From NCBI GenBank assembly GCA_963557065.1, contig CAUWCT010000043.1:4197-68196 (forward strand): 64,000 nt of DNA, in the 5' to 3' direction. The position numbers and the translations under genes were made by a program. Position 1 is the first letter of the stretch. Each line of letters starts with the position of its first letter. Of the stretch, positions 1,473 through 36,260 are shown one piece after another. The notes under the pieces are model-generated. The model ran no database searches and was not told the DNA's origin. It saw only the letters and a program-made list of their open reading frames with translations. This stretch comes from an uncultured Lachnospiraceae bacterium (lineage in GTDB: Bacteria; Bacillota; Clostridia; Lachnospirales; Lachnospiraceae).

Positions 1473-1493
1473 GTAACAGTTTAGCCATGCATG
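1473..1493. repeat. Solo terminal fragment of the 151-bp MITE family (GTAACAGTTtAGCCATGCATg)
   Basis: A 20/21 match to the first 21 nt of the intact copy at 22837. Similarity stops abruptly after that. The fragment lies 4 nt from the flagellin stop codon. Confidence 0.6.
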
Positions 1494-1497
1494 TTTT

Positions 1498-2925
1498 TTA
1501 TCCCTGCTGAATCATATTTAATACTGATTCCGGCACGAGATTAGCCTGGTTCAGCATAAACTGGGATGCCTGCAAAATAATATTGTTTTTTGTCATTTCC
1601 GTAATTTCTTCTGCCATATCTGTATCCCGTATATTGCTTTCTGCTGTTGTAATATTCTCATTGTAGCAGGTCAGCGTATTATACGTGTGCTCCAGCCGGT
1701 TTTCATAAGCTCCCATACGCCCCCGCTCTGTGCTTAAATGATCAATGGCATTGTCCAGCAGATCAATGGCCGCAGAAGCTCCCGGCTGAGTCGTCAGATC
1801 CACTCCTGCGATCTTTAAATCGGCGGCGCTTAAATAGGGAAGATCCACATATAACGTTTCTTTTTTGGAAGGCCCAATCTGAAATACAATATCTCCCCCT
1901 GTCCCCGGATCTACCGCAACTCCCTCGCCGAATTTCCCGTCATTCGGATAGGTGTTATGGTTGGTGTTAAATTGGGGCCAGTCCCAATTTGGCCAACTCC
2001 CAGTCGGCAAATTCTGGGGAGGCGGAGCGCTGGAGCGATCATCATATACGATTAATTTATTGGGATTCGTTGGATCCACAACCAGCTTTGTATAATGATT
2101 GTCCGGATTGCCGTTATCCGCCCCGGCTATAATGGCCTGCACCAAATCCTGGGCGCTGCCAATGTTGTCAATCCCGATATTATAAATGTAATGGCTTCCG
2201 CTTCTGTCCACGCTGTTGGTGTTCCCATCTGTAAATTTAATGCTGTAATGATTATTACAGGTAAAACAGGTCATGTAAAACCCGCCCTCTTTTAATTCCT
2301 TTTTCTGAGCATCCGTTCCTGTATATGCGCTAAAGTCCAGATAGGTAGCCGCATGATCGATCTGATATTTGGTCTCTGTTCCGGTCGCCTGATCTTTAAA
2401 GACCTCCTCGGTTGTATAACTTTCATTTAAATACCCATTCTGCATAGAAGAATCTGTGCCCACCCAAGGCGGAAGGGTTCCTTCATAGGTCACTGTAGGC
2501 CCCTGCTGCTTTCCCCGCAGCAGCTGAACTCCATTAAATTCTGTGTGCTCTGAAATCCGATCAATTTCCAATAAAATTGCATCCACCTCTTCCTGAATGG
2601 CCTCTCTGCTGGTATCATTATAGGTGCCATTGGCAGACTGAATGCTTAATTCGTGTATGCGCCCCAACATAGCGTGTATCTCCTGCATCGCTCCTTCTGC
2701 TGTCCGTACCAGTCCGATTCCGTCCTGGGTATTTCTGGCAGCCTGATCCAGCCCCTTTATCATAGCCCGCATACCCTCTGAAATTGCAAGCCCTGCTGCA
2801 TCATCCCCTGCCCGGTTAATGCGGTAACCAGAAGAAAGCCGTTCCAGGCTGCGGCTCATATTTTTTCTGTTTGTATTTAAATTCCGCTTTGCATTAAGCC
2901 CCGGCAGATTATGCTGTATATACAT
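1498..2925 (-). CDS. fliC: Flagellin (475 aa from the ATG at 2925)
   Basis: N-terminus MYIQHNLPGLNAKRNL...LERLSSGYRINRAGDDAAGLAISE and C-terminus ...TDMAEEITEMTKNNIILQASQFMLNQANLVPESVLNMIQQG are the canonical D0/D1 flagellin helices. The listed 515-aa ORF has a 40-aa extension that would start inside the promoter. GGAAGGTG precedes 2925. Confidence 0.93.
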   Translation of the reverse strand: MYIQHNLPGLNAKRNLNTNRKNMSRSLERLSSGYRINRAGDDAAGLAISEGMRAMIKGLDQAARNTQDGIGLVRTAEGAMQEIHAMLGRIHELSIQSANGTYNDTSREAIQEEVDAILLEIDRISEHTEFNGVQLLRGKQQGPTVTYEGTLPPWVGTDSSMQNGYLNESYTTEEVFKDQATGTETKYQIDHAATYLDFSAYTGTDAQKKELKEGGFYMTCFTCNNHYSIKFTDGNTNSVDRSGSHYIYNIGIDNIGSAQDLVQAIIAGADNGNPDNHYTKLVVDPTNPNKLIVYDDRSSAPPPQNLPTGSWPNWDWPQFNTNHNTYPNDGKFGEGVAVDPGTGGDIVFQIGPSKKETLYVDLPYLSAADLKIAGVDLTTQPGASAAIDLLDNAIDHLSTERGRMGAYENRLEHTYNTLTCYNENITTAESNIRDTDMAEEITEMTKNNIILQASQFMLNQANLVPESVLNMIQQG

Positions 2926-2965
2926 ACTTCTCAACACCTTCCCAATTATTCTGTCCTTTGCTATT

Positions 2966-2994
2966 ATTATAGGAAAGAACCAAAATACCGTCAA
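2966..2994 (-). promoter_or_regulatory. Sigma-A-type promoter candidate for flagellin (TTGACG-17 nt-TATAAT)
   Basis: Read on the minus strand, the -35 is 2989-2994 and the -10 is 2966-2971, about 40 nt upstream of the ATG at 2925. Confidence 0.55.
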
Positions 2995-3043
2995 CGCTGC
3001 CAGGCTGTTATTTTTGCTATACCAATCTTCTTTTTTGTCAATC

Positions 3044-3072
3044 AAAAAAGCAGATCTCCTGGACCTGCTTTT
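3044..3072 (-). terminator. Rho-independent terminator after the HPr-like gene
   Basis: Minus strand AAAAGCAG-N11-CTGCTTTT followed by TT: an 8-bp stem plus a T6 tract, 12 nt after the stop at 3084. Confidence 0.6.
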
Positions 3073-5103: not shown

Positions 5104-5174
5104 AGGGGAATAGTTCAATGGTAGAGCAGCGGTCTCCAAAACCGTAGATGGGGGTTCGAGCCCCTCTTCCCCTG
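5104..5174 (+). tRNA. trnW: tRNA-Trp (anticodon CCA); the 3' CCA is not encoded
   Basis: Acceptor stem AGGGGAA/TTCCCCT with discriminator G, D-loop AGTTCAATGGTAGAGC, anticodon loop CTCCAAA, and T-loop GGTTCGAGCCC. Confidence 0.93.
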
Positions 5175-9666: not shown

Positions 9667-10710
9667 TTATCGTTCTTCCCTGAGTTCAGGAAGTTCTTCC
9701 CGCAAATACGCGGCTCTGGCAATGTCCAGTTCTTCCTGGCTTAAAGGACGGCTGGACAACTTCTGCAGATTGGCAGTCTGAATCCCCAGCATCAGGGAGT
9801 AAATGGAACATGGCTCTTTTGTGTGAATCAGGCCGTCCGCTATACCGGACATCAGCTGAGACAGAAAAATCATCGCGTCTTTTTTTGTCAGCCGTCTGGC
9901 GAATTTCAGGACGCCGTAAGACTTATACGCCTCGTCTTCCCTCTCCAGACGGTGATTTTCCAGAGCCATTTTACGCACCTTTTTCTCCTGAGCGTCCAGT
10001 TGTCTGGCAATCTTGGTAACCAGTTCGATTATATCCTTTTCGCTTTGTCCCAGAGTCTTTTGATTGGCAATCTCGTAAAGGGCTCCGTAATTGTCGCTTC
10101 CCTCTCCGTACACGCCCCGGATGCTTACTCCAAACCGGCTCATCTCTGCCAGAAGATTCTGAAACCGTTTCCCCATGGAAAGGGTCGGAAGGTGCAGGAT
10201 GGCCGATGCCCGCAGCCCGGTTCCCACATTGGTGGGGTAAGAGGTAAGATAGCCGTATTTTTCATCATAGGCATACGAAAAATGGGTATTGACGTAATCA
10301 TCCAGTTTATCCGCTCTCTGCCACAATTCATCCAGATGAAGCCCCGGCGACATAACCTGAAGCCGGATATGATCATCTCCATTTAAAATAAAACTGGTGC
10401 CTTCATCTTCTGAAATAATAATTCCTGTGGGGCTTTTCTTCGCCACTGTGCCGGAATTTAAAATTCTTCTTTCCCTGAGCGCCAGCCGATCCAGCTCTTT
10501 TAATTCTTCCAGAAACGCATATTCGTAAACGTTCCCATCCTCTTCTTTCAGATCTTTTAACCCGTTTTCAAGGCGTTTCACTACTTCTTTTCCTTCCTCA
10601 TCTGAAAGAGTCTGAGGAAACCGGTAGGCATCCCAGTTTCTTGCCAGGCGTACCCGGCTGTACACTACATTTCCTGAGGAAGTCTCCGGCTTTTCAAACC
10701 ATCTAAGCAT
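9667..10710 (-). CDS. mcsB: Protein arginine kinase McsB
   Basis: Phosphagen-kinase-like domain (NEEDHIRLQ-type segment ILNGDDHIRLQV, TNVGTGLRAS). The ATG at 10710 overlaps the mcsA stop by 8 nt (ATGCTTAG). Confidence 0.9.
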   Translation of the reverse strand: MLRWFEKPETSSGNVVYSRVRLARNWDAYRFPQTLSDEEGKEVVKRLENGLKDLKEEDGNVYEYAFLEELKELDRLALRERRILNSGTVAKKSPTGIIISEDEGTSFILNGDDHIRLQVMSPGLHLDELWQRADKLDDYVNTHFSYAYDEKYGYLTSYPTNVGTGLRASAILHLPTLSMGKRFQNLLAEMSRFGVSIRGVYGEGSDNYGALYEIANQKTLGQSEKDIIELVTKIARQLDAQEKKVRKMALENHRLEREDEAYKSYGVLKFARRLTKKDAMIFLSQLMSGIADGLIHTKEPCSIYSLMLGIQTANLQKLSSRPLSQEELDIARAAYLREELPELREER

Positions 10711-11278
10711 TGCTTTCTTCCCCCTTTTCTTTTTCCAATTCCCGGATCTGATCCCGGTATCTGGCAGCCTGTTCATACTCTTCGCTGGAAATAGCGGATG
10801 CCAGACGGGCCTTTAACAGTTCAATCTGATCCCTGACCGAGGCCGGCTCATCCTTTTCATCCTCTTTTCCCAAAATCTGCGAAACCGGATGAATTTTCTG
10901 AAACTTTGGCTGCTTTCCCACATGGGCATCCCCGCCCTGAAGCTTTTTAATATTGTCGCTCATCAGCAGGTCAAATACACTGTAGCAGTCCATACAGCCA
11001 AACCGGCTGTTGCTTACAAACTCTTCATAACTGGTGCCGCAGGAAGGGCAGACCACCTGGGCCATCTTATCTTCTTGTCGGTCTTCTTCGTCGTCAATGC
11101 CTAAAAGTCCAGACAACAGTTTTCCCAGAGGAAATTCCCCGTCAAAAATAGCGGAATATCCGGTAAAATCCATTTCCCTGGCACATTGGCTGCAAAGATT
11201 GTGCTCATTTTTTATTCCATTAATAATCTCTGTATACTTAATATTCGCCTCGCGAATCCTGCATCTTTCACACAGCAT
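10703..11278 (-). CDS. mcsA: McsA (zinc-finger plus UVR-domain activator of McsB)
   Basis: CERC...CSQC and CPSC...CMDC zinc-finger pairs, plus a C-terminal UVR motif EEYEQAARYRDQIRELE. Confidence 0.88.
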   Translation of the reverse strand: MLCERCRIREANIKYTEIINGIKNEHNLCSQCAREMDFTGYSAIFDGEFPLGKLLSGLLGIDDEEDRQEDKMAQVVCPSCGTSYEEFVSNSRFGCMDCYSVFDLLMSDNIKKLQGGDAHVGKQPKFQKIHPVSQILGKEDEKDEPASVRDQIELLKARLASAISSEEYEQAARYRDQIRELEKEKGEESNA

Positions 11279-11321
11279 AGATTATCCTCCTTGAGAAATC
11301 ACCCTGCCTTTCGCAAAATGA

Positions 11322-11708
11322 TTAAATTTCCCTGTCATTTTTCGCATAGCTGTCAAACACCTCATCCAGAAGCTGGTGAGCCTCTTTTCTGCTTACATTC
11401 CGGCAGATCCCCCTGGCAAGGACAACTTCCAACTCCTGGCGCATCTCTTCTAACGCCTGCATCTTATCCATATCCAGACAGATAAATGCTCCCTTTCTCC
11501 TGTCCAGTTTCACAAACCCTTCCTGTTTTAATACTGCATACGCTTTGTTGACTGTATGCATGTTAATCCCGATATTGTCAGCCAGTTGACGGACGGATGG
11601 AAGGGAGTCCCCATCCCGCAGCGTATCTGCGGCAATATCCATAATAATTTGATTGCACAGCTGCAGATACAGGGCCTCGTCACTGCTGAAATCAATTTTC
11701 CAGAGCAT
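11322..11708 (-). CDS. GntR-family (YtrA-like, short effector domain) transcriptional regulator, 128 aa, first gene of the mcsA-mcsB-clpC operon
   Basis: Winged-helix segment LPSVRQLADNIGINMHTVNKAYAVLKQEGFV. ATG at 11708. There is a 43-nt gap to mcsA. Confidence 0.8.
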   Translation of the reverse strand: MLWKIDFSSDEALYLQLCNQIIMDIAADTLRDGDSLPSVRQLADNIGINMHTVNKAYAVLKQEGFVKLDRRKGAFICLDMDKMQALEEMRQELEVVLARGICRNVSRKEAHQLLDEVFDSYAKNDREI

Positions 11709-11724
11709 GTTATCACCATCTTTC

Positions 11725-11771
11725 GTTATAACTGTTATAGTAATCTTATAACATTTAACGGAAATGGTCAA
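11725..11771 (-). promoter_or_regulatory. Promoter TTGACC-17-TAAGAT overlapped by three GTTATAAC-type palindromic boxes (candidate GntR operator)
   Basis: -35 at 11766-11771 and -10 at 11743-11748 on the minus strand. Boxes are GTTATAAC (11725), GTTATAGT (11734) and CTTATAAC (11745), spaced 9 and 11 nt apart. GTTATAAC is self-complementary. Confidence 0.5.
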
Positions 11772-12904
11772 GTTACAATTTGAAACATTTCATCCATCAT
11801 CAGCCAGTTGGCCCGAAAGTAGTTCATCAGCTGCCAATACCCTGCGCCCAGAAGGCCGTACTCTTTTATCAGTTCAAATTTGGCCAGTATGCTCCGCACG
11901 TCTTCAAACCACACTTCATGTTCGATCCCGTTTTGACTGTAGTGAAAATACGGGGACTTGGCAGTCTCATCAAATTGAATCTCTGCTCCCTGCTCAACTG
12001 CCAGACGGACTGCTTCCACATTGGAGACAGTCTTTGCCCTTGTCACTCCCTGCTTAAAAGGAAGGGGCCAATCATATCCGTAATTGGGAATTCCCAGACA
12101 AATCGTTTCTCCCGGTATCTCGGTTACTGCATACTCCACTACCTTTCGGACCATATGAATCGGCGCAACTGCCATAGGAGGCCCCTGGCTGTATCCCCAT
12201 TCATAGGTCATCAGCATTACGTAATTGGCCGCCTTGCCCAGAAGCCCGTAGTCAATTCCTTCATATAAAAGCCCTTTCTGATCCGCAGACGTCTTGGGAG
12301 ACAGAGCCACTGAAACCGAATATCCAAATAGATTTAAAGTTTTTCTGGCCTGACTTACAAACCTTGCAAATCGTTCTCTGTCTTCTGCCAGAACATATTC
12401 AAAATCAATGTCCAATCCCCGAAATCCCTTCTCCTGCATAGTCCGGCCCAGTTCCCAAATCAGTCTCCGGGAGGCATCCGGATTTCTCACCAGTTCCGAT
12501 ACCAGCTGATTGTTAAATCGTCCATCTTCTCCCAGCGGCGTAAGAGTAAGCACCGGAGCAGTCCTGGCCTCTTTGGCCTCTTCTATCATCCAGGTATCGT
12601 CCAATGCAGGAGGAATTAAATGCCCTTCCTTTGTAAATCCATAAGAAAATACATAAAGAGCGCTTAAAAACGGCAGAGTTTCGTTGAGGGTTCTGTAATG
12701 GATAAAGGTATATGCGTAACCAAAGGAAAAAAGAGGGCTTTGGTCAAAATAAGGATGCTTTTCTGCAAGATAAAGGGCCTGACCTATGGCCAGAGGATAT
12801 GGATAAAGGATTTGATTGTCATCTGCAATCTCTGATGCCGGAATACCGGCATCAGAAGCAATGGTATCCAAGGTATCTCCCTCTTTCACTACATAAATCG
12901 CCAT
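11768..12904 (-). CDS. LysM-domain glycoside hydrolase family 18 protein (YaaH/SleL-like spore peptidoglycan hydrolase)
   Basis: N-terminal LysM YVVKEGDTLDTIASDAGIPASEIADDN, and the GH18 catalytic motif GLDIDFEY (DxDxE). Confidence 0.85.
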   Translation of the reverse strand: MAIYVVKEGDTLDTIASDAGIPASEIADDNQILYPYPLAIGQALYLAEKHPYFDQSPLFSFGYAYTFIHYRTLNETLPFLSALYVFSYGFTKEGHLIPPALDDTWMIEEAKEARTAPVLTLTPLGEDGRFNNQLVSELVRNPDASRRLIWELGRTMQEKGFRGLDIDFEYVLAEDRERFARFVSQARKTLNLFGYSVSVALSPKTSADQKGLLYEGIDYGLLGKAANYVMLMTYEWGYSQGPPMAVAPIHMVRKVVEYAVTEIPGETICLGIPNYGYDWPLPFKQGVTRAKTVSNVEAVRLAVEQGAEIQFDETAKSPYFHYSQNGIEHEVWFEDVRSILAKFELIKEYGLLGAGYWQLMNYFRANWLMMDEMFQIVT

Positions 12905-12960
12905 AGCTGTCTCCGGCAGTTCTTTCCATCATGTATATGCCCACATCCGGCTAAAGATGC

Positions 12961-12999
12961 AAAAAGAGGGAGGAAACCGCCTTTGGTCTCCTGCCCTCT
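12961..12999 (-). terminator. Rho-independent terminator after the MBL-fold lipoprotein gene
   Basis: Minus strand AGAGGGCAGGA-N13-TTCCTCCCTCT followed by TTTTT. Confidence 0.65.
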
Positions 13000-13014
13000 T
13001 TCTGATTATGAAAC

Positions 13015-14118
13015 CTATTCGTTCAAAAAGCTGTCTTTCTGATCGATGACCTCCAGATTCTTTTTGTCATCCATCCGAACTTTTACTACGCCATCATAAA
13101 ATGTGTGATGGTACTGAGCGCCTTCTTTCTGATAGTTCTCGCAAACCGTCATGTTGGGCGCCTTGTCGTTCATGGCTACCACCACCTGGGGAGAGACGGC
13201 CTTGATCCATTTTTTTGAATTGGAAGTATCTTTTCCATGGTGATTGGCCTTTACCAGATCGCTGTGCAGCTTTTCCCCATACTGTTCTACATACTCCCTC
13301 TCCTGGGGAAGGTACAAATCTCCGCTGAACAATGCGGTAGACTCCCCATATGTAAACTTTAAGGTAAGGGAATTGTTATTTAAAAATTCTGTGCTGTTGT
13401 CTGGAAATCCTTCTGGATACTGAATATCCTCTCCGGGTCCCAACACTTCTACCTGAACCTGATCTCCAAACTGAAATACATCTCCGGTTTTTAAAAGATG
13501 GTTTTCTGCACTGCTTTTTTCCAGAGCAGCCATATAATTGTCATAGGTCTTTGTGGTATACTCCACATAGGAACGATACGTCTCCCCTACCGGAAACGCT
13601 TCCATTACCTCCGGAATCCCCCCAATGTGATCGATATGAGGATGAGATGCCACCAGATAGTCAATCTTTTCAATCCCCAAATCCTTTAATGCCTGAACCA
13701 CCATATCCCCTGCATCCGGATGGCCTGCATCCAACAGCATAACCTTGCCGTCCGGCGAAATCAAAATCGTAGAATCTCCCGCCTTATCCTCCGCATCCGG
13801 CTCTGTCTCTAAATTCAGAAAATAGGCGGTCAGCTTGCCTTCATCCTGGCTGCGATCCACAATTTCCTGATACCGGTCTATCTGGTCAGATCCCCCTGAC
13901 TCTTCTGTCTCACCGGACGTCTCCGGCTTTGTCTCTCCTGTCTGGCCGGATGTCTCCTGGCCAGTCTCTCCTGCCTGGGCTGCGTCAGTCCCGGCAGTCT
14001 GCTTAGTCCCCGCAGATGCCTGCGTTTGTGCCAAATCCGCTTCCCCGCCGCAGCCTGTTAAATAAAGCGCTGCCAGCAAAGCAATTCCCATTTGTTTCAA
14101 ACCTGATTTTCGTTTCAT
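13015..14118 (-). CDS. Metallo-beta-lactamase-fold lipoprotein (similar to the ComEC C-terminal domain)
   Basis: Lipobox LTGCGG, a Thr/Glu/Gly-rich linker, and MBL motifs LLDAGH and ASHPHIDHIGG. Confidence 0.8.
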   Translation of the reverse strand: MKRKSGLKQMGIALLAALYLTGCGGEADLAQTQASAGTKQTAGTDAAQAGETGQETSGQTGETKPETSGETEESGGSDQIDRYQEIVDRSQDEGKLTAYFLNLETEPDAEDKAGDSTILISPDGKVMLLDAGHPDAGDMVVQALKDLGIEKIDYLVASHPHIDHIGGIPEVMEAFPVGETYRSYVEYTTKTYDNYMAALEKSSAENHLLKTGDVFQFGDQVQVEVLGPGEDIQYPEGFPDNSTEFLNNNSLTLKFTYGESTALFSGDLYLPQEREYVEQYGEKLHSDLVKANHHGKDTSNSKKWIKAVSPQVVVAMNDKAPNMTVCENYQKEGAQYHHTFYDGVVKVRMDDKKNLEVIDQKDSFLNE

Positions 14119-14235
14119 TCTGATAAGCCTCCATTCAAGTCATTTTCTGTTCAAACAGGCGAAAAATCGTACTATCAGATTAGCATGAATTTGTGTATTT
14201 TGTCAACTATTTACGACTTATCAAGGAATTTTTTG

Positions 14236-14386
14236 GTAATAGTTCAGCCATGCGAAGATTCAGGCAGAAAAAAGCGTTGAAAACTTGCTTTCATAAGAGT
14301 TTTTCTGTCTGAATCTTTATAGGGCGGACGCCAGACGCTTCTTGTCCGCTGCAGGCGGGCAAGAAGATGCATGGCTGAACTGTTAC
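14236..14386 (+). mobile_element. 151-bp MITE, copy A (non-autonomous, highly structured)
   Basis: TIR GTAATAGTTCAGCCATGC / GCATGGCTGAACTGTTAC. Flanking 8-mers are ATTTTTTG and TTTTTTTG. It is 96% identical to copy B. Confidence 0.85.
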
Positions 14387-14430
14387 TTTTTTTGTAAGAA
14401 TTCAAACAGGAAAACGCGTTGAACGCTTCT

Positions 14431-15765
14431 TTAGTAATGGTATTTCTTTCTTTTTGCAATCAAGAACAGCATGGAGATCAGAAATGCACAGATTTCTGCT
14501 ACCGTAATTGCCAGCCAGATTCCGTCAATTCCTAAAAATATCGGCAGAATCAATACGGAAAGCAGCTGAAATACCAGAGTCCGCAAAAAGGAAACTGCTG
14601 CAGACACTCCTCCATTGTTTAAGGCTGTAAAGAAAGAAGAGACAAAAATGTTGATGCCAGACAGAACAAACGCAAAGGAGAATATCTGGAATGCGTGTCT
14701 GGTCATGGCAAAAAGTTCCGGATCATATCCTACGAAAATCCGGGCCAGAGGACCTGCCAGAACCTGCGCCAGACCCATCATAATTACGCCTATGGTTCCC
14801 ATAATCAGAAGGCTCTTTTTCAGCATACTTTTCAGTTCGCTGTGATTTCCGGCCCCATAGTGATAACCTATAATGGGCGCTGTTCCAATGGAATATCCAA
14901 TGAAAATGGCAATAAAAATAAACTGGACATACATAAGAACACCGTAAGCCGCTACTCCGTTTTCTCCTGCAAACCGAATCAACTGGAAATTGTACAGCAT
15001 ACTGACAATGGATGAGGAAATATTGGTCATCAATTCAGAAGAACCGTTGATGCAGGCTTTAATAAGGGGACCAGCTTCCATCCGGGTTTTCTTTAACTGC
15101 AGCAGACTGTCATTGGGGCGAAGGAAATAAATTAAAGGCAGAATGCCGCCGACGCACTGGCTGATTCCGGTGGCAATGGCCGCACCTGCCACGCCCCAGT
15201 GAAACACTGCAATAAATAAAGCGTCCAGCACCATATTGGTAATTCCGGCTGCAACTGTAGCCGCCAGTCCCAGTTTCGGCTTTTCTGCCGTAATCAGGAA
15301 ACTCTGAAATACATTCTGCAGCATAAATGCAGTATTAAAAAACAGGACAGAACGGCTGTAAATCACACATTCCTGAAGCATTCCTTCTGTTGCCCCAAGA
15401 AAAATGGCAATGGGGCGGATAAATACAATTCCGACTATGGATGAAAGAATACCCAGGATCAAAGTCAGATAAATCATCATGGTAAAATACCGGTGGGCCA
15501 GTTCCTTTTTTCCTTCTCCCAGAGTCTTTGCCACCAGCGCGCTTCCGCCGGTACCGATCATAAAACCGATTCCGCCCAAAACCATAATAAAAGGCATTAC
15601 CAGGTTAATTGCGGCAAAAGATGTCTTTCCCACAAAGTTTGACACAAAGAGACCGTCTACCACACCATAGATGGAAGTGAATACCATCATAATAATAGAC
15701 GGCACGCAAAAACGGAATAATTTTTTATAAGTAAAATGTTCAGATAACTGAATTTGCTGCTTCAT
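14431..15765 (-). CDS. MATE-family efflux transporter
   Basis: 12-TM profile with a MATE-typical N-terminus (KKLFRFCVPSIIMMVF) and repeated GxG-rich helices. Confidence 0.88.
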   Translation of the reverse strand: MKQQIQLSEHFTYKKLFRFCVPSIIMMVFTSIYGVVDGLFVSNFVGKTSFAAINLVMPFIMVLGGIGFMIGTGGSALVAKTLGEGKKELAHRYFTMMIYLTLILGILSSIVGIVFIRPIAIFLGATEGMLQECVIYSRSVLFFNTAFMLQNVFQSFLITAEKPKLGLAATVAAGITNMVLDALFIAVFHWGVAGAAIATGISQCVGGILPLIYFLRPNDSLLQLKKTRMEAGPLIKACINGSSELMTNISSSIVSMLYNFQLIRFAGENGVAAYGVLMYVQFIFIAIFIGYSIGTAPIIGYHYGAGNHSELKSMLKKSLLIMGTIGVIMMGLAQVLAGPLARIFVGYDPELFAMTRHAFQIFSFAFVLSGINIFVSSFFTALNNGGVSAAVSFLRTLVFQLLSVLILPIFLGIDGIWLAITVAEICAFLISMLFLIAKRKKYHY

Positions 15766-20849: not shown

Positions 20850-21392
20850 TTACATGCTCCCTTCTGTCAGTACCTTGTGATTCTTAATTAAATAGTCTAC
20901 TAACGATACAATGGTTAAAATAAGGGCAGTCCACAGACAAATCTGAGTTACCACAAAAAGGGCCGGAATGTTGAAAATCAACAGCACAATGGCAATCATC
21001 TGAAATGTGGTTTTAAATTTCCCCCAATAGCTTGCTGCAATGACAACTCCATTATCAGATGCCACCAGGCGGAAGCCGCTGATAATAAATTCCCGGCTGA
21101 TAATAATAATAACCATCCAGGCCGGAACCTGTCCCAGTTCAATAAAACAGATCAGGGCCGAACACACTAAAAGCTTGTCAGCCAGGGGGTCCATAAATTT
21201 TCCAAAATTAGTTACCAGATTGTATTTTCTGGCAATTTTACCATCTAACAAATCCGTCAGGCTGGCCACGATAAAGATCACAGCCGCCGCAATCCGCATC
21301 GTTTCATTGGTTCCATTCTGGAACATCAGGGCTGCTACAAAAAACGGGATCAAAATCACCCGAAGGACCGTCAGTTTATTTGGCAAATTCAT
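20850..21392 (-). CDS. pgsA: CDP-diacylglycerol--glycerol-3-phosphate 3-phosphatidyltransferase
   Basis: MNLPNKLTVLRV... and the CDP-alcohol phosphotransferase motif DLLDGKIARKYN...GKFMDPLADK. Confidence 0.92.
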   Translation of the reverse strand: MNLPNKLTVLRVILIPFFVAALMFQNGTNETMRIAAAVIFIVASLTDLLDGKIARKYNLVTNFGKFMDPLADKLLVCSALICFIELGQVPAWMVIIIISREFIISGFRLVASDNGVVIAASYWGKFKTTFQMIAIVLLIFNIPALFVVTQICLWTALILTIVSLVDYLIKNHKVLTEGSM

Positions 21393-22716
21393 CGTATATC
21401 TCTCCAATCAAATCGTATTCGCTGGCTCCTACCACTTTTACCCGTACAAAATCTCCGGACATGAGAAGTTCTCCTGTATTGACAAAGATCAGGCCATCCA
21501 CTCCTGGAGCGTCCATGTACGTGCGGCCCACATAGGCAGGCTCATCCGCCACTTTTCCTTCAATCATAACATCCAGAATCCGACCCACCATTTCCTCGGA
21601 ATGCGCAAAGGCAATCTCCTGCTGGAGTTCCATAATCTCATCCCTGCGTTCTTCCTTCACTTCCTGAGGAACCTGGTTTTCAAAGGAATAGGCCGGTGTA
21701 TCTTCTTCTGCGGAATAAGCAAACACGCCTAAACGGTCAAATTCCATCTCATCTACAAATTCCATTAAAATCTCATGATCCTCACTGGTCTCTCCCGGAA
21801 AACCGGAGATTAAAGTGGTTCGCAGGGCAATATCCGGAATCTCGCTGCGCAGTTTTGCAACCATTTCTTTTATCTGCGCCTGATTGGTCCTGCGGTTCAT
21901 GGCTTTTAAAATTTTATCACTGGCATGCTGGACAGGAATATCCAGATAATGACAGATCTTTTCTTCCTCTTTGATAACCTGAATCAACTCGTCCGTAATC
22001 TCCTCCGGGTAGCAATACTGAATCCGAATCCACTGAATCCCGGAAATTGCAGCCAGACGCCTAAGCAGCGTCGGAAGCATCTTTTCTCCATACAGATCCA
22101 CTCCGTACAGAGTGGTCTCCTGAGCCACTAAAATCAGTTCCTTTACTCCGCCTTTTGCCAGAGACTCTGCCTCTTTTACCAGTTCTTCTATGGGATAGCT
22201 GCGGTAAGGCCCTCTGAGACTTGGAATAATGCAGTACGTACAGCGCTTATCGCACCCTTCTGCAATCTTTAAAAATCCATAATATCCTCCTGTGGTCACT
22301 ACCCTCTCTGCGCTGCTTTTTGGAAGGCGTTTTAAATCCTCAAAACAGGACACCGGTCCCTGACCGCTGGATACTTTCTCCAATGCTTCTAAAACCTCAT
22401 CATAAGAAGAGGTGCCCACAATCGCGTCTACTTCCGGAATCTCCTCTAAAATCTCCTGCTTATACCGCTCTGCCATACATCCGGTAACCAGAAGCATTTT
22501 TACAGTTCCTTCTTTTTTTAACTCCGCCATCTCTAAAATCGTATTGACGCTTTCTTCCTTGGCGTCGCCGATAAAGCAGCAGGTATTGACCAGCACCGCA
22601 TCCGCCTGGCTTTCATCATCGGTAAACTCCCAGCCTTTTTGGCGGAAAATTCCCATCATCTTCTCGGTATCCACCAGGTTTTTATCGCATCCCAGTGAAA
22701 CGCACAGTAATTTCAT
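21376..22716 (-). CDS. rimO: Ribosomal protein S12 methylthiotransferase RimO
   Basis: N-terminal SLGCDKNLVDTE, radical-SAM CDKRCTYCIIP, and a C-terminal TRAM domain. Confidence 0.9.
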   Translation of the reverse strand: MKLLCVSLGCDKNLVDTEKMMGIFRQKGWEFTDDESQADAVLVNTCCFIGDAKEESVNTILEMAELKKEGTVKMLLVTGCMAERYKQEILEEIPEVDAIVGTSSYDEVLEALEKVSSGQGPVSCFEDLKRLPKSSAERVVTTGGYYGFLKIAEGCDKRCTYCIIPSLRGPYRSYPIEELVKEAESLAKGGVKELILVAQETTLYGVDLYGEKMLPTLLRRLAAISGIQWIRIQYCYPEEITDELIQVIKEEEKICHYLDIPVQHASDKILKAMNRRTNQAQIKEMVAKLRSEIPDIALRTTLISGFPGETSEDHEILMEFVDEMEFDRLGVFAYSAEEDTPAYSFENQVPQEVKEERRDEIMELQQEIAFAHSEEMVGRILDVMIEGKVADEPAYVGRTYMDAPGVDGLIFVNTGELLMSGDFVRVKVVGASEYDLIGEIYDEFAK

Positions 22717-22836
22717 AAATCTAAAAACACCTCATCTTCTTTTTGATTTTTCATGTGCAGATTCGTCTGCAGTTCAAATCTATGCCTTGATGCGGAAAAT
22801 GGAGCGACAGACTTTCTGGCATACGTGTACATAAAT

Positions 22837-22987
22837 GTAACAGTTCAGCCATGCATCTTCTTGCCCGCCCATGGCGGACAAGAAGCGTCTGGCATCCGCC
22901 CTATGAAGATTCAGACAGGAAAAATCTTATGAAAACAAGCTTTCAACATTTTTTCCTGTCTGAATCTTCGCATGGCTGAACTGTTAC
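22837..22987 (-). mobile_element. 151-bp MITE, copy C (inverted relative to A and B)
   Basis: Perfect 18-bp TIR GTAACAGTTCAGCCATGC, and a perfect 8-bp direct repeat ACATAAAT on both flanks (22829-22836 and 22988-22995). Confidence 0.9.
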
Positions 22988-23038
22988 ACATAAATAAAAG
23001 TCTTCCCGCTCCACTTCACGAAAAAGCCTGACTCCGGA

Positions 23039-23299
23039 TTACTCTGCAGTTGCTTCTCCTTCCGGAACTTCCTCTTCTCCAAGGATTTTTACTTTGGTCT
23101 TATATAATTCTTCAATGGCAACAGAAAGAGGTTTCTTGCCTGCGCCGGGAACCAGCGGCTCTGCCCCGTCAATAATCTGTCTTGCCCGCTTTGCAGATGC
23201 AATGACAATGGAATAACGGCTCTGGACAACCGGCTGTTCTCCCGGTTCTACCTCTTTATTTACTACATTAATTAAATCCGAATAAGATGGATGCAACAT
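23039..23299 (-). CDS. rpoZ: DNA-directed RNA polymerase subunit omega
   Basis: SRYSIVIASAKRARQII core, and the gmk-rpoZ synteny. Confidence 0.88.
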   Translation of the reverse strand: MLHPSYSDLINVVNKEVEPGEQPVVQSRYSIVIASAKRARQIIDGAEPLVPGAGKKPLSVAIEELYKTKVKILGEEEVPEGEATAE

Positions 23300-31083: not shown

Positions 31084-31166
31084 AGCTCCTTTCTGCTGAC
31101 AGTGCACCAGACAGTTTCCCGGATTGTTTGCAGTTTGGGAATAAACATCCCAAACTGCGAAAACAC

Positions 31167-31317
31167 GTAACAGTTCAGCCATGCGAAGATTCAGGCAGAA
31201 AAAAGCGTTGAAAGCTTGTTTTCATAAGAGTTTTTCTGCCTGAATCTTTATAGGGCGGACGCCAGACGCTTCTTGTCCGCCGCACGCGGGCAAGAAGATG
31301 CATGGCTGAACTGTTAC
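31167..31317 (+). mobile_element. 151-bp MITE, copy B, inserted between the SBP and permease genes of the ABC operon
   Basis: Perfect 18-bp TIRs. Flanking 8-mers are GAAAACAC (31159-31166) and GAAAATAC (31318-31325). The right flank abuts the SBP stop codon at 31326. Confidence 0.9.
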
Positions 31318-31325
31318 GAAAATAC

Positions 31326-32672
31326 TTAATACTCTGAAAGTTCGATTGCGATCTCGGTGGCATTTTTCAGTTCTTCCATTAATGCTTCCCTGCTTAAATC
31401 TTCCGTCTGAACAACCATGGACCACACATTGGTATTTACATACTTAACCTGCTCCCGAATGTTGTAAATAGCCGGAAGGATCTGGGCGTCATCAAAAATA
31501 CCATAATTTACATTGGCAACCGGATATTTGTCAGGAGACTGCTTTACCAGCTCCATTGTCTCCAAATGAATCGGCGCCTGACCAGAGTCAGCCCAGTTTA
31601 GCATGATTTCCGGCTGATAGGCGAATTTCATAAACTCTGCAATACCTGCCAGTTTCTTTTCATCTGTTACCTTTGCAGATACCGCAAAGGTATGTCCGCC
31701 AGCCGGGACACAAGGGGTATCGCCGTAGAGCTGAGGAAGAGTTCCGATTCCCAGATTTTCTCCCAGTACTTCCTTTGCAGCCGTATAATTCCATGGCCCG
31801 GTCAATGCGCAGGCAGAGCTTACATTGGTACTGCCGTCAGATTCTTTAATAAAGGTATTGAAATGGTCATTGTCCCCCAGACCAGGCGCGCTTAAATGAT
31901 CCTTGTAAATCAAATCGTGAATCTTCATAAACGCATCGCAGATTTCTTCCGTATCCATCTTAATATGCCCGTCTTCCACCCAGGTGCATCCCGACTGTCC
32001 GAGGGCTGTCATCCAGGCCCACTGATGGTCTCCTGTCAACGGAATTGCCATCGGGTATATGCCGGAATTTTCAGAATCCAGCTGATCCCGCAGCGCCGCC
32101 ATATCCTCGTACGTTTTCGGAGGTTCTGTCACATACTCTTTATTGTAATAGAAGGTCTCTGCATACAAATCCAGGGGGAAAGCAAAAATTCCATCCTCAT
32201 ACTTTGCATAGGTCTGGGTAATGGGATGAAAATCCTCCTCAAAGGAAAGACCAGCCATCTCATATAAATCTGATACTTCCCGCAAAAGCCCGTCTGCGTG
32301 ATAAGTGGAAATCCAATCTGCATGAATAATCAGCATATCAAAGTCATCGGATTTAAATTTTGTGTAATGATCTGCATCCTGAAGCTGTTCGATGTAATAC
32401 TGATCCTGAGACTGGTTAAAAGCATCTACAATTTTTGTCATAAACGGGCCGTCACCGCCGGTAAAACCATTAATAAATGTAATTGTAGTCCTGTCTTCTG
32501 CATTTGCCTCCTGGCCGCCCTCTTTGCTTTCTTCACCCGCCCCGGCTGCCGCAGTCTTTGCCGGCTCATCTGTCCCGGCAGCGGTTTCTGTATTTCCCCC
32601 TCCGCATCCTGCCAGAGAAACTGCCATTACGCCAGCCATAACCAATGAGATTGCTGTTTTCTTTCTTTTCAT
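31326..32672 (-). CDS. ABC transporter extracellular solute-binding lipoprotein (family 1, sugar type)
   Basis: Lipobox SLAGCGGG followed by a low-complexity linker. AAGGAG precedes the ATG at 32672. Confidence 0.85.
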   Translation of the reverse strand: MKRKKTAISLVMAGVMAVSLAGCGGGNTETAAGTDEPAKTAAAGAGEESKEGGQEANAEDRTTITFINGFTGGDGPFMTKIVDAFNQSQDQYYIEQLQDADHYTKFKSDDFDMLIIHADWISTYHADGLLREVSDLYEMAGLSFEEDFHPITQTYAKYEDGIFAFPLDLYAETFYYNKEYVTEPPKTYEDMAALRDQLDSENSGIYPMAIPLTGDHQWAWMTALGQSGCTWVEDGHIKMDTEEICDAFMKIHDLIYKDHLSAPGLGDNDHFNTFIKESDGSTNVSSACALTGPWNYTAAKEVLGENLGIGTLPQLYGDTPCVPAGGHTFAVSAKVTDEKKLAGIAEFMKFAYQPEIMLNWADSGQAPIHLETMELVKQSPDKYPVANVNYGIFDDAQILPAIYNIREQVKYVNTNVWSMVVQTEDLSREALMEELKNATEIAIELSEY

Positions 32673-35288: not shown

Positions 35289-35300
35289 GGCGGCCCCTGG

Positions 35301-35376
35301 TTTTCAACGCTTTTCCCTGTGAAAACGAGTTTTCAACGCTTTTTCCTGTCTGAATCTTCGCATGGCCAACTGTTAT
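35301..35376 (-). repeat. Truncated MITE copy D (one TIR plus half of the long hairpin, with an internal 29-nt duplication)
   Basis: GAAAACGAGTTTTCAACGCTTTTTCCTGTCTGAATCTTCGCATGGCCAACTGTTAT matches the right end of copy C. TTTTCAACGCTTTT(T)CC(C)TGT occurs twice (35301 and 35330). Confidence 0.75.
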
Positions 35377-36215
35377 CTGGAAATCAGTTTTCCCAAAATC
35401 ATCTCCAGACACACCCCGTTTTCTCTGGGAATCTCTAATTTATCCGAGATTTTGATACATTCCCCTACAAAACGGGCTGCTTTTTTCACAGAATCGTTTA
35501 ACTCTTCCCCCAGGACCATGCCGCCGGCCAGAATGGAAGAAAACACATCTCCTGTGCCGGGCCGCTCTTTTCCTGCAATCCTGGTTCGGATAAACTGAAT
35601 CTTCTGATCCGGCTGGGCTACTGTGTTGGTCAGATAACTGCCTTCCAAAACCCCTGTGATGACCACCTGTTTTGGTCCCATTTCCTGAAGTTTTTTTGCC
35701 ATTTCTTCCAGTTCTCTCCGTTTCCAGCCAGACGCCTTATAGGGCGTGCCGGTCAGAATGCAGGCTTCTGTCACATTGGGGGTAATCATGTCTGCCAGAG
35801 AGATTAGATGCCCCATCTTCCCGCACATTTCCTCTGTGTAGGTGGCATAAGCCTTTCCCTCATCCCCCATAATCGGATCAATTAACACTTTGGTGTCCGG
35901 TCCTTTAAAGGCTTCTATCGCCTGTTCTACGATTTTGATTTGTTTTGCAGATCCTAAAAAACCGGCTGCAATTCCGTCAAAAGTAAGATCCAGTTCCTCC
36001 CACTTTTTCAGATAGTCTGGCATACTCTCTGTATAGTCATCCATATGCCAGGAAGGAAAGCCGGTATGATTGGAAAAAATCGACGTGGGAACCGGACAGC
36101 ACTGAATCTTCATAGCGGCCAAAACTGGAATGGCAACTGTAAGAGAACAGCGGCCATAACCGGACAAATCGTTGATCATCATAATTTTTTTCTGATGGTT
36201 CTGGATTGTATTCAT
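35373..36215 (-). CDS. pdxK: Pyridoxal/pyridoxamine kinase (PdxK/PdxY ribokinase-family)
   Basis: INDLSGYGRCSLTVAIPVLAAM and C-terminal GTGDVFSSILAG. ATG at 36215. The stop TAA lies within the last nucleotides of MITE relic D. Confidence 0.8.
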   Translation of the reverse strand: MNTIQNHQKKIMMINDLSGYGRCSLTVAIPVLAAMKIQCCPVPTSIFSNHTGFPSWHMDDYTESMPDYLKKWEELDLTFDGIAAGFLGSAKQIKIVEQAIEAFKGPDTKVLIDPIMGDEGKAYATYTEEMCGKMGHLISLADMITPNVTEACILTGTPYKASGWKRRELEEMAKKLQEMGPKQVVITGVLEGSYLTNTVAQPDQKIQFIRTRIAGKERPGTGDVFSSILAGGMVLGEELNDSVKKAARFVGECIKISDKLEIPRENGVCLEMILGKLISR

Positions 36216-36260
36216 CAATAAATCCTCTTTTGCTTCTTGTATTTGGCGAAAGCCGCCCAT

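Follow-up and report, generated by a model that had tools for sequence, protein, structure and literature searches.

Structured 151-bp repeats of Lachnospiraceae are very probably non-autonomous transposons of the IS66 family

The window, the whole 64-kb stretch of Lachnospiraceae DNA analysed here, carries three full copies (A, B and C) of a 151-bp repeat and two relics, and every copy in it is intergenic. Copy A (14236..14386, plus strand), whose left terminal inverted repeat (TIR) has one mismatch (GTAATAG...), lies between an MBL-fold gene (13015-14118, minus strand) and a MatE gene (14431-15765, minus strand), flanked by the 8-mers ATTTTTTG (14228..14235) and TTTTTTTG (14387-14394), which are equal at 7 of 8 positions. 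Copy C (22837..22987, minus strand) is inverted, its hairpin module H1 coming first on the minus strand; both of its TIRs are perfect, it sits in the gap that separates rpoZ (23039-23299, minus strand) from rimO (21376-22716, minus strand), and ACATAAAT stands twice beside it, at 22829..22836 and 22988-22995, identical at 8 of 8 positions. Copy B (31167..31317, plus strand), in which both TIRs are again perfect (GTAACAGTTCAGCCATGC at 31167..31184, plus strand, and the right TIR at 31300-31317), lies in an ABC-transporter operon, 8 bp past the stop codon that ends the solute-binding-protein gene (31326-32672, minus strand) and in front of the permease gene, from which an intercistronic hairpin separates it; its flanking 8-mers, GAAAACAC (31159..31166) and GAAAATAC (31318-31325), agree at 7 of 8 positions. 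An earlier, sequence-only reading of this DNA had taken the repeats for MITEs, that is non-autonomous transposons, and the coordinates, length, orientations, 18-bp TIRs and flanking 8-mers that it gave for the three copies were all re-found. Its comparison of the copies likewise agrees with ours: A and B, for which it reported 6 differences in 151 positions, are 96.0% identical, A and C, which it put at about 90%, are 90.1% identical, and B and C are 91.4% identical. As the three copies are 4-10% diverged from one another, these insertions may be old.

Of the three relics that the same reading had counted beside the three intact copies, only two were found. One is a solo TIR (1473..1492, plus strand; GTAACAGTTTAGCCATGCAT) that follows the stop codon of a flagellin gene (1498-3045, minus strand) at a distance of 5 bp. 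The other is a truncated element (~35300..35377, minus strand) that retains a degenerate TIR (ATAACAGTTGGCCATGC), the 5' arm of H1 and the apical hairpin, the remainder being gone; it contains a 15-nt internal direct duplication (AAAAGCGTTGAAAAC), its TIR overlaps the TAA stop of a kinase gene (35373-36260, minus strand), and serS lies downstream of it. With up to three mismatches allowed, the 18-mer GTAACAGTTCAGCCATGC occurs seven times in the window, against 0.02 occurrences expected, and none of 100 shuffles reaches seven. The high genomic copy number that the sequence-only reading had deduced is less firm than it was put, the 64 kb giving three full copies and two relics.

Between the TIRs, which can pair as a stem, the elements follow one plan, a long hairpin H1 with an apical stem, a CTTG cap and a 3' bulge of TAAG type, then a mini-hairpin (family consensus ATAGGGCGGACGCCC), then a second hairpin, H2. 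In copy B, read on the plus strand, the stem of H1 (31185..31249) is about 19 bp long, with GAAAG-CUUG-UUUUC as apical hairpin and AUAAG as the 3' bulge, the central mini-hairpin (31253..31264) reads GGGCGGACGCCA, and H2 (31269..31297) pairs CTTCTTGTCCGC with GCGGGCAAGAAG over 12 bp that include one T.G pair on the plus strand.

Some further features of the window touch the copies or their surroundings. The point at which copy B is inserted lies between the solute-binding-protein stop codon and a native hairpin (GCAGTTTGGGATGTTTATTCCCAAACTGC, gene strand; 31125-31158) that separates the solute-binding-protein and permease genes and is conserved in a related locus, L150. The permease ATG given by the ORF list, at 31182, falls within copy B and is probably not the true start. 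A tRNA gene (5104-5174, plus strand) is the sole Rfam match in the window at gathering score. Four metagenome contigs (L133-L136), 100% identical to window positions 10515-14270, all end 35 nt inside copy A; these ends are an assembly break in the repeat, and the family breaks short-read assemblies.

Relatives whose RimO or solute-binding protein is at least 90% identical to that of the window show what the sites look like unoccupied. The rpoZ-rimO spacer measures 159 bp in L143-L149 versus 322 bp in the window, and when these loci are aligned at site C they lack the whole element together with one 8-mer, leaving the single copy ATTTATGa (gene strand). One isolate that is empty at site C, 29-1_20 (JBKUOG01), has the same MITE elsewhere in its genome (L047, L061 and L071). 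Site B is empty in L150, which is on the same 140-kb contig as L149 and reads TAA-GGGTTTTTA-hairpin where the window reads TAA-GTATTTTC-[MITE]-GTGTTTTC-hairpin. The single 8-mers at the empty sites equal those of the window at 6-7 of 8 positions, those genomes differing slightly near the junction. Insertion is polymorphic at two of the three window sites, B and C. The sequence-only reading had proposed a search for empty sites and had named their non-existence as evidence against transposition; in close relatives they exist for both of these copies, each with a single 8-mer.

The repeat extends far beyond this genome. A scan for the exact 18-mer TIR, using one genome per species, gave at least 117 loci, and among the matches listed nearly all are from Lachnospiraceae (Muricomes, Acetatifactor, Mediterraneibacter, Eisenbergiella, Lachnoclostridium and many MAGs), with several loci per genome, for example at least five in Muricomes intestini. 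One of the loci listed is an insertion sequence (IS); the others are MITEs or MITE fragments. In a census of target-site duplications over the listed loci and the window, which reached about 60 other genomes, 67 elements have two inverted TIRs, and these span 50-388 bp with length modes of 151 and 186-187 bp. The 8-mers on their two sides are exact repeats in 28 of the 67 and agree at seven or more of the eight positions in 43, compared with 0.4% in a shuffled control made of mismatched left and right flanks, and no repeat length other than 8 bp fits the flanks of these 67 elements. The duplicated 8-mers contain 17% G+C, against 39% immediately outside them and 46% in the window. Duplications and AT-rich targets of this kind mark the action of a cut-and-join transposase whose staggered cuts are 8 bp apart. 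The further copies that the sequence-only reading had suggested looking for are thus present in many Lachnospiraceae genomes, with 8-bp target-site duplications. No vector for the spread was identified among PLSDB plasmids, where neither the MITE nor the IS has a match, or among IMG/VR viral contigs, from which the TIR is absent.

Individual loci show rearrangements involving the element. L061:2454-2845 holds five 79-bp units in tandem (97% matches), each made up of 14 nt of flanking DNA, the MITE TIR, H2 and part of the mini-hairpin, and this array continues into a full 151-bp MITE at 2785-2935; it is a local amplification across the element boundary. At L045:1836-2941 two inverted TIR-bearing element halves 1,106 bp apart enclose a 289-aa NagB-like ORF, the pair being either two unrelated relics or a composite element with a host gene.

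A transposase-bearing partner was found through a locus with an unpaired TIR, L062, in which the stop codon of a 494-aa ORF lies 26 bp before an exact TIR. The protein matches PF03050 (DDE_Tnp_IS66; E = 7.5e-19, 68.6 bits against a cutoff of 23.1) and also DUF6444; against NCBIfam transpos_IS66 it reaches E = 9e-40 and 137 bits, under the 180-bit equivalog cutoff, and it is therefore a divergent member of the IS66 family. A search at E <= 1e-20 gave 1,593 relatives, most of them about 487 aa long and mostly on contigs of 1.6-2.5 kb, short as expected for collapsed multi-copy repeats, and many of these IS contigs begin exactly at the TIR. The IS is 1,814-1,817 bp long with one transposase gene (487-494 aa) and occurs widely among Lachnospiraceae of the gut. 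The TIR of copy B forms both ends of the 1,817-bp contig L139, where the 18-mer is exact on either side; in L137 the right end is likewise exact (18 of 18), and the left agrees at 17 of 18 positions. L118 holds a 1,814-bp IS copy between a perfect 8-bp duplication (AGTTTTTG), and in L129 the IS stands between two copies of ATCAATCA. The outer 14 nt, GTAACAGTTCAGCC, are kept at both ends of all the IS variants, which are mutually 76-85% identical. A single ORF is called within the 1.8-kb IS (L118-L142), with no second gene, which is the layout of the ISBst12 group, defined by a single ORF without the classical IS66 accessory genes tnpA and tnpB (PMC12898284). The guess of IS66 in the sequence-only reading has therefore held at the level of the family, the long element with the same TIR encoding a DDE_Tnp_IS66 transposase, and is refined here to the single-ORF ISBst12-group type in place of the classical three-ORF IS66.

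The search for other transposases beside unpaired TIRs gave no further candidate: when the 31 adjoining ORFs were compared all-against-all no two were alike, and the IS66-family gene of L062 is the sole transposase-like one. The 64-kb window contains no IS66-family transposase gene. MITE and IS match over the terminal 18-20 nt only, and we rejected the idea that the MITE is a simple internal-deletion derivative of the IS, as there is no interior homology beyond these terminal nucleotides.

The left end of the IS has a feature of its own. In L139:60-121 two perfect DnaA-box 9-mers, TTATCCACA and TGTGGATAA, stand inverted at IS positions 60 and 112-113, upstream of the transposase start. They recur at the same IS positions in L118, L124 and L128 and are conserved among IS variants that are 76-85% identical, with weaker boxes of TTTTCCACA type nearby. 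This conservation suggests that DnaA might control transposase expression or transposition.

From these data we conclude, with high confidence, that the 151-bp repeats are non-autonomous transposons (MITEs) of the IS66 family, of ISBst12-group type. At 151 bp the window copies have no coding capacity, and their 18-bp TIRs are perfect in B and C. The MITE TIR is the end of the IS, both elements have 8-bp duplications, sites B and C are polymorphic and the transposase of the IS belongs to the IS66 family. The original MITE reading, drawn from TIRs and flanking repeats, is borne out by duplications that are statistically strong, by empty sites and by a transposase-bearing element with the same TIR. 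We infer that the MITE would be mobilised in trans by the 487-494-aa transposase of the IS.

The interior of the elements is also distinctive. The single-strand fold of the element has a minimum free energy of -87.8 kcal/mol (z = -11.3), that of its opposite strand -79.3 kcal/mol (z = -13.0), and in the single-strand model H1, the mini-hairpin, H2 and the TIR stem would make a four-way junction. Subfamilies differ almost wholly in stem sequence and keep the same plan and pairing, and shorter members hold part of the modules, namely H1 alone (98 bp), H2 alone (103 bp) or H1 with the mini-hairpin (126 bp). The distance from TIR to mini-hairpin is nearly constant, 71 of 84 distinct sequences, all of which had passed a pairing filter, having the same 88-nt frame. 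Covariation in H1 was counted in a gap-free alignment of 35 sequences mutually less than 94% identical. Both sides have changed in 26 of its 29 pairs, in 205 cells, against 59 +/- 7 in shuffled and 31-46 in slid controls, and none of 500 shuffles reaches the observed count. Within this alignment 89.5% of cells are paired, a figure inflated by the pre-filtering of sequences for lower-stem pairing, which does not inflate the compensatory counts. Given these compensatory changes across H1, the fold, or at least foldability, seems to be selected; as judged from this variation the interior fold appears to have been under selection in the propagating lineages, and the folded interior is unusually well kept.

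Interiors were also found apart from the usual ends. Motifs of the interior away from the TIR were absent from the roughly 985 kb sampled ahead of a metagenome scan, and that scan, made with the central 16-mer, gave at least 120 loci. Among those listed, TIRs of IS66 type can be recognised in about two-thirds, roughly a dozen loci are chance matches in GC-rich DNA, and a few keep the interior with other closing inverted repeats (L152, L218/L263, L262, L269, L202 and L174/L200/L205/L236), for example TTCTGCCGTGC, GTCTGAAGTGC, AATGAACTGC and GCAACAGTTCCGCCGTGC. The interior is better conserved than the termini in some copies. No 8-bp duplication is seen in the flanks of L152 and L218. Such alternative ends point either to decay of the copies or to relatives adapted to other transposases.

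One subfamily, of 186-187 bp (L109:2553-2609, L040, L041, L050, L023 and L037), has in the loop of H2 a conserved TGTAYAWT resembling an extended -10 and pointing out of the right end, which could act as an outward-facing promoter. The 151-bp copies of the window have a different H2, without TGTAYAWT.

Changes in the stems were further compared between strands. In H1 (alignment A3, columns 9-73), counted with a strand-symmetric filter on the strand that has H1 first, there are 48 G.U events versus 21 A.C events (p = 0.0016), and 13 versus 3 among private changes, an asymmetry that hints at constraint on one single strand, whether RNA or single-stranded DNA. It is not reproduced in H2 (16 versus 15) or in the TIR stem (29 versus 28), and the orientation of the elements shows no bias with respect to co-directional flanking genes (27 versus 21, p = 0.47). 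With the H1 signal absent from H2 and the TIR stem, and no orientation bias, we did not adopt strand-specific selection as the explanation of the H1 asymmetry. A scan of copy B for promoters and terminators found no promoter-like or terminator-like site.

The elements were also compared with described RNA families. A gathering-score scan of the window with Rfam 15 gave nothing for the MITEs, which answers the check for a described non-coding RNA that the sequence-only reading had proposed. Permissive scans of the 151-bp and 186-bp elements gave only sub-threshold hairpins of miRNA-precursor type, nothing credible; a match to HDV-F-prausnitzii scored 20.6 bits against a gathering score of 44 and pairs an H1 arm with an H2 arm, on which grounds it was rejected, and rRNA models, tried for the resemblance of the GGGAGCTTGCTC loop to 16S helix 6, likewise gave nothing credible.

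So stable an interior raises the alternative that the repeats are a structured non-coding or cis-acting RNA, such as an mRNA stabiliser, a processing site or a small RNA, with the TIRs serving as its closing helix. The very stable fold (z = -11 to -13), the heavy compensatory variation of H1 and its excess of G.U over A.C on one strand all agree with an RNA, as do the loci that keep the interior with other closing inverted repeats (L152, L218, L262 and L269) and the place of copy B within an operon, where an RNA hairpin could matter. We nevertheless judge this alternative improbable, as 8-bp duplications and empty sites show insertion of DNA and the supposed closing helix is the end of a transposase-bearing IS; moreover orientation relative to flanking genes is unbiased, G.U and A.C changes are symmetric in H2 and the TIR stem, copy B lacks any promoter-like or terminator-like site, and no Rfam family matches at gathering score, the sub-threshold matches being generic hairpins. 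An RNA-level side effect of single insertions is possible and compatible with the MITE explanation. Repeats that are short, intergenic, palindromic and highly structured also bring to mind REP/BIME palindromes spread by a RAYT (Y1) transposase, or a host-made repeat such as a terminator family. This we find barely credible: REPs have neither target-site duplications nor IS-type TIRs, whereas here duplications are the rule and the ends are those of a DDE IS, and no T-tract follows the hairpins. The sequence-only reading, which had set REP and terminator repeats aside, thus agrees with the 8-bp duplications and IS-type TIRs and with the scan of copy B.

A transposon origin could be granted and the IS66 family still be the wrong one. 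Duplications of 8 bp are made by several IS families, and with no partner IS in the 64-kb window the MITEs might be moved by another 8-bp-duplicating family (e.g. ISL3, IS256, IS6 or IS1595), the match to the IS66 ends being coincidence or nesting. Such an explanation is very unlikely in view of the IS copies, 76-85% identical, all of which are bounded by GTAACAGTTCAGCC and have DDE_Tnp_IS66 as their single ORF, and of repeat-collapsed IS contigs that start exactly at the TIR; the TIR also shares 11 of 14 positions with the one published for ISDge4, of the ISBst12 group, and the one transposase-like gene among the 31 ORFs beside unpaired TIRs belongs to the IS66 family.

For the MITE explanation the course of transposition can be sketched from the known parts. 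An IS copy elsewhere in the cell would make the 487-494-aa DDE transposase, which would bind both TIRs of the MITE, bring the ends together and insert the element into a very AT-rich 8-bp target, and repair of the staggered cut would duplicate the 8-mer. The fold may aid this process, a suggestion made with low confidence, by joining the ends of a short stiff element through cruciform extrusion or a folded single strand: the ends are only about 115 bp apart, below the persistence length of duplex DNA, and in a folded strand the intrastrand TIR stem would be, in sequence, the normal TIR duplex. That only foldable copies seem to propagate suggests that the fold helps the transposition reaction itself, and it is less likely that the fold serves the host; possible effects on host transcripts, for example at copy B between the solute-binding-protein gene and the native hairpin, would be by-products of individual insertions and not the reason for the family. 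We put forward tentatively, and consider rather doubtful, the further proposal that the folded interior is a selected module required for, or boosting, mobilisation by ISBst12-group transposases, which would take a folded strand or cruciform as substrate, and that this module is able to swap its terminal repeats and partner transposase.

These elements form a widespread repeat family of gut Lachnospiraceae that is tied to a specific transposase family, and the full-text literature yielded no description of this TIR sequence or of IS66-linked MITEs in Lachnospiraceae or Clostridia, so that the family is ordinary in kind and apparently undescribed. Recognising the elements would aid the assembly and binning of an important gut clade. 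As the insertions fall in operons and promoter regions (the gap between the solute-binding-protein and permease genes, and the rpoZ-rimO spacer), they contribute to regulatory differences among strains. The transposition mechanism of the IS66 family, and of the ISBst12 group especially, is poorly characterised, and the compensating interior raises the testable question of whether a folded substrate is needed by this family of DDE transposons. If the folded-module proposal were true, it would mean structure-dependent transposition in a DDE family of poorly known mechanism.

Among known systems the partner IS is closest to the ISBst12 group (ISBst12, ISDge4), which it resembles in its length of 1.8 kb, its single DDE_Tnp_IS66 ORF, its GTAAC TIRs and its 8-bp repeats. 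For ISDge4 of this group a TIR of GTAACTGCTCAGCA, direct repeats of 8 bp and one ORF, coding for a 449-aa transposase, have been described (PMC12898284), and the TIR of the partner IS equals that of ISDge4 at 11 of 14 positions. The partner transposase diverges from the IS66 model (137 versus 180 bits, the NCBIfam equivalog cutoff). Unlike the insertion sequences of the ISBst12 group, the window elements measure 151 bp, lack an ORF and have only the 18-20 terminal nucleotides in common with the IS; the literature offered no MITE partner for the group. MITEs with structured interiors are known from other bacteria, among them Correia/NEMIS of Neisseria, ERIC/IRU of enterobacteria, RUP and BOX of Streptococcus pneumoniae and Bcr1 of Bacillus cereus. 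MITEPsy1 of Pseudomonas syringae is likewise a bacterial MITE (PMC3189936). Like all of these the present repeats are short, non-coding, intergenic and apparently multicopy, with TIRs and target duplications, a transposase that would act in trans and a stable fold, and like BOX the Lachnospiraceae family is modular, with H1 only, H2 only or H1 and the mini-hairpin. REP/BIME sequences share with it abundance, intergenic position and palindromic form, but REPs depend on a Y1 enzyme and lack both the IS-type TIRs and the 8-bp duplication that mark the window family. From the other structured MITEs it differs in its IS family, its AT-rich 8-bp target and its Lachnospiraceae hosts, and in having an interior plan kept by compensatory change across many genera.
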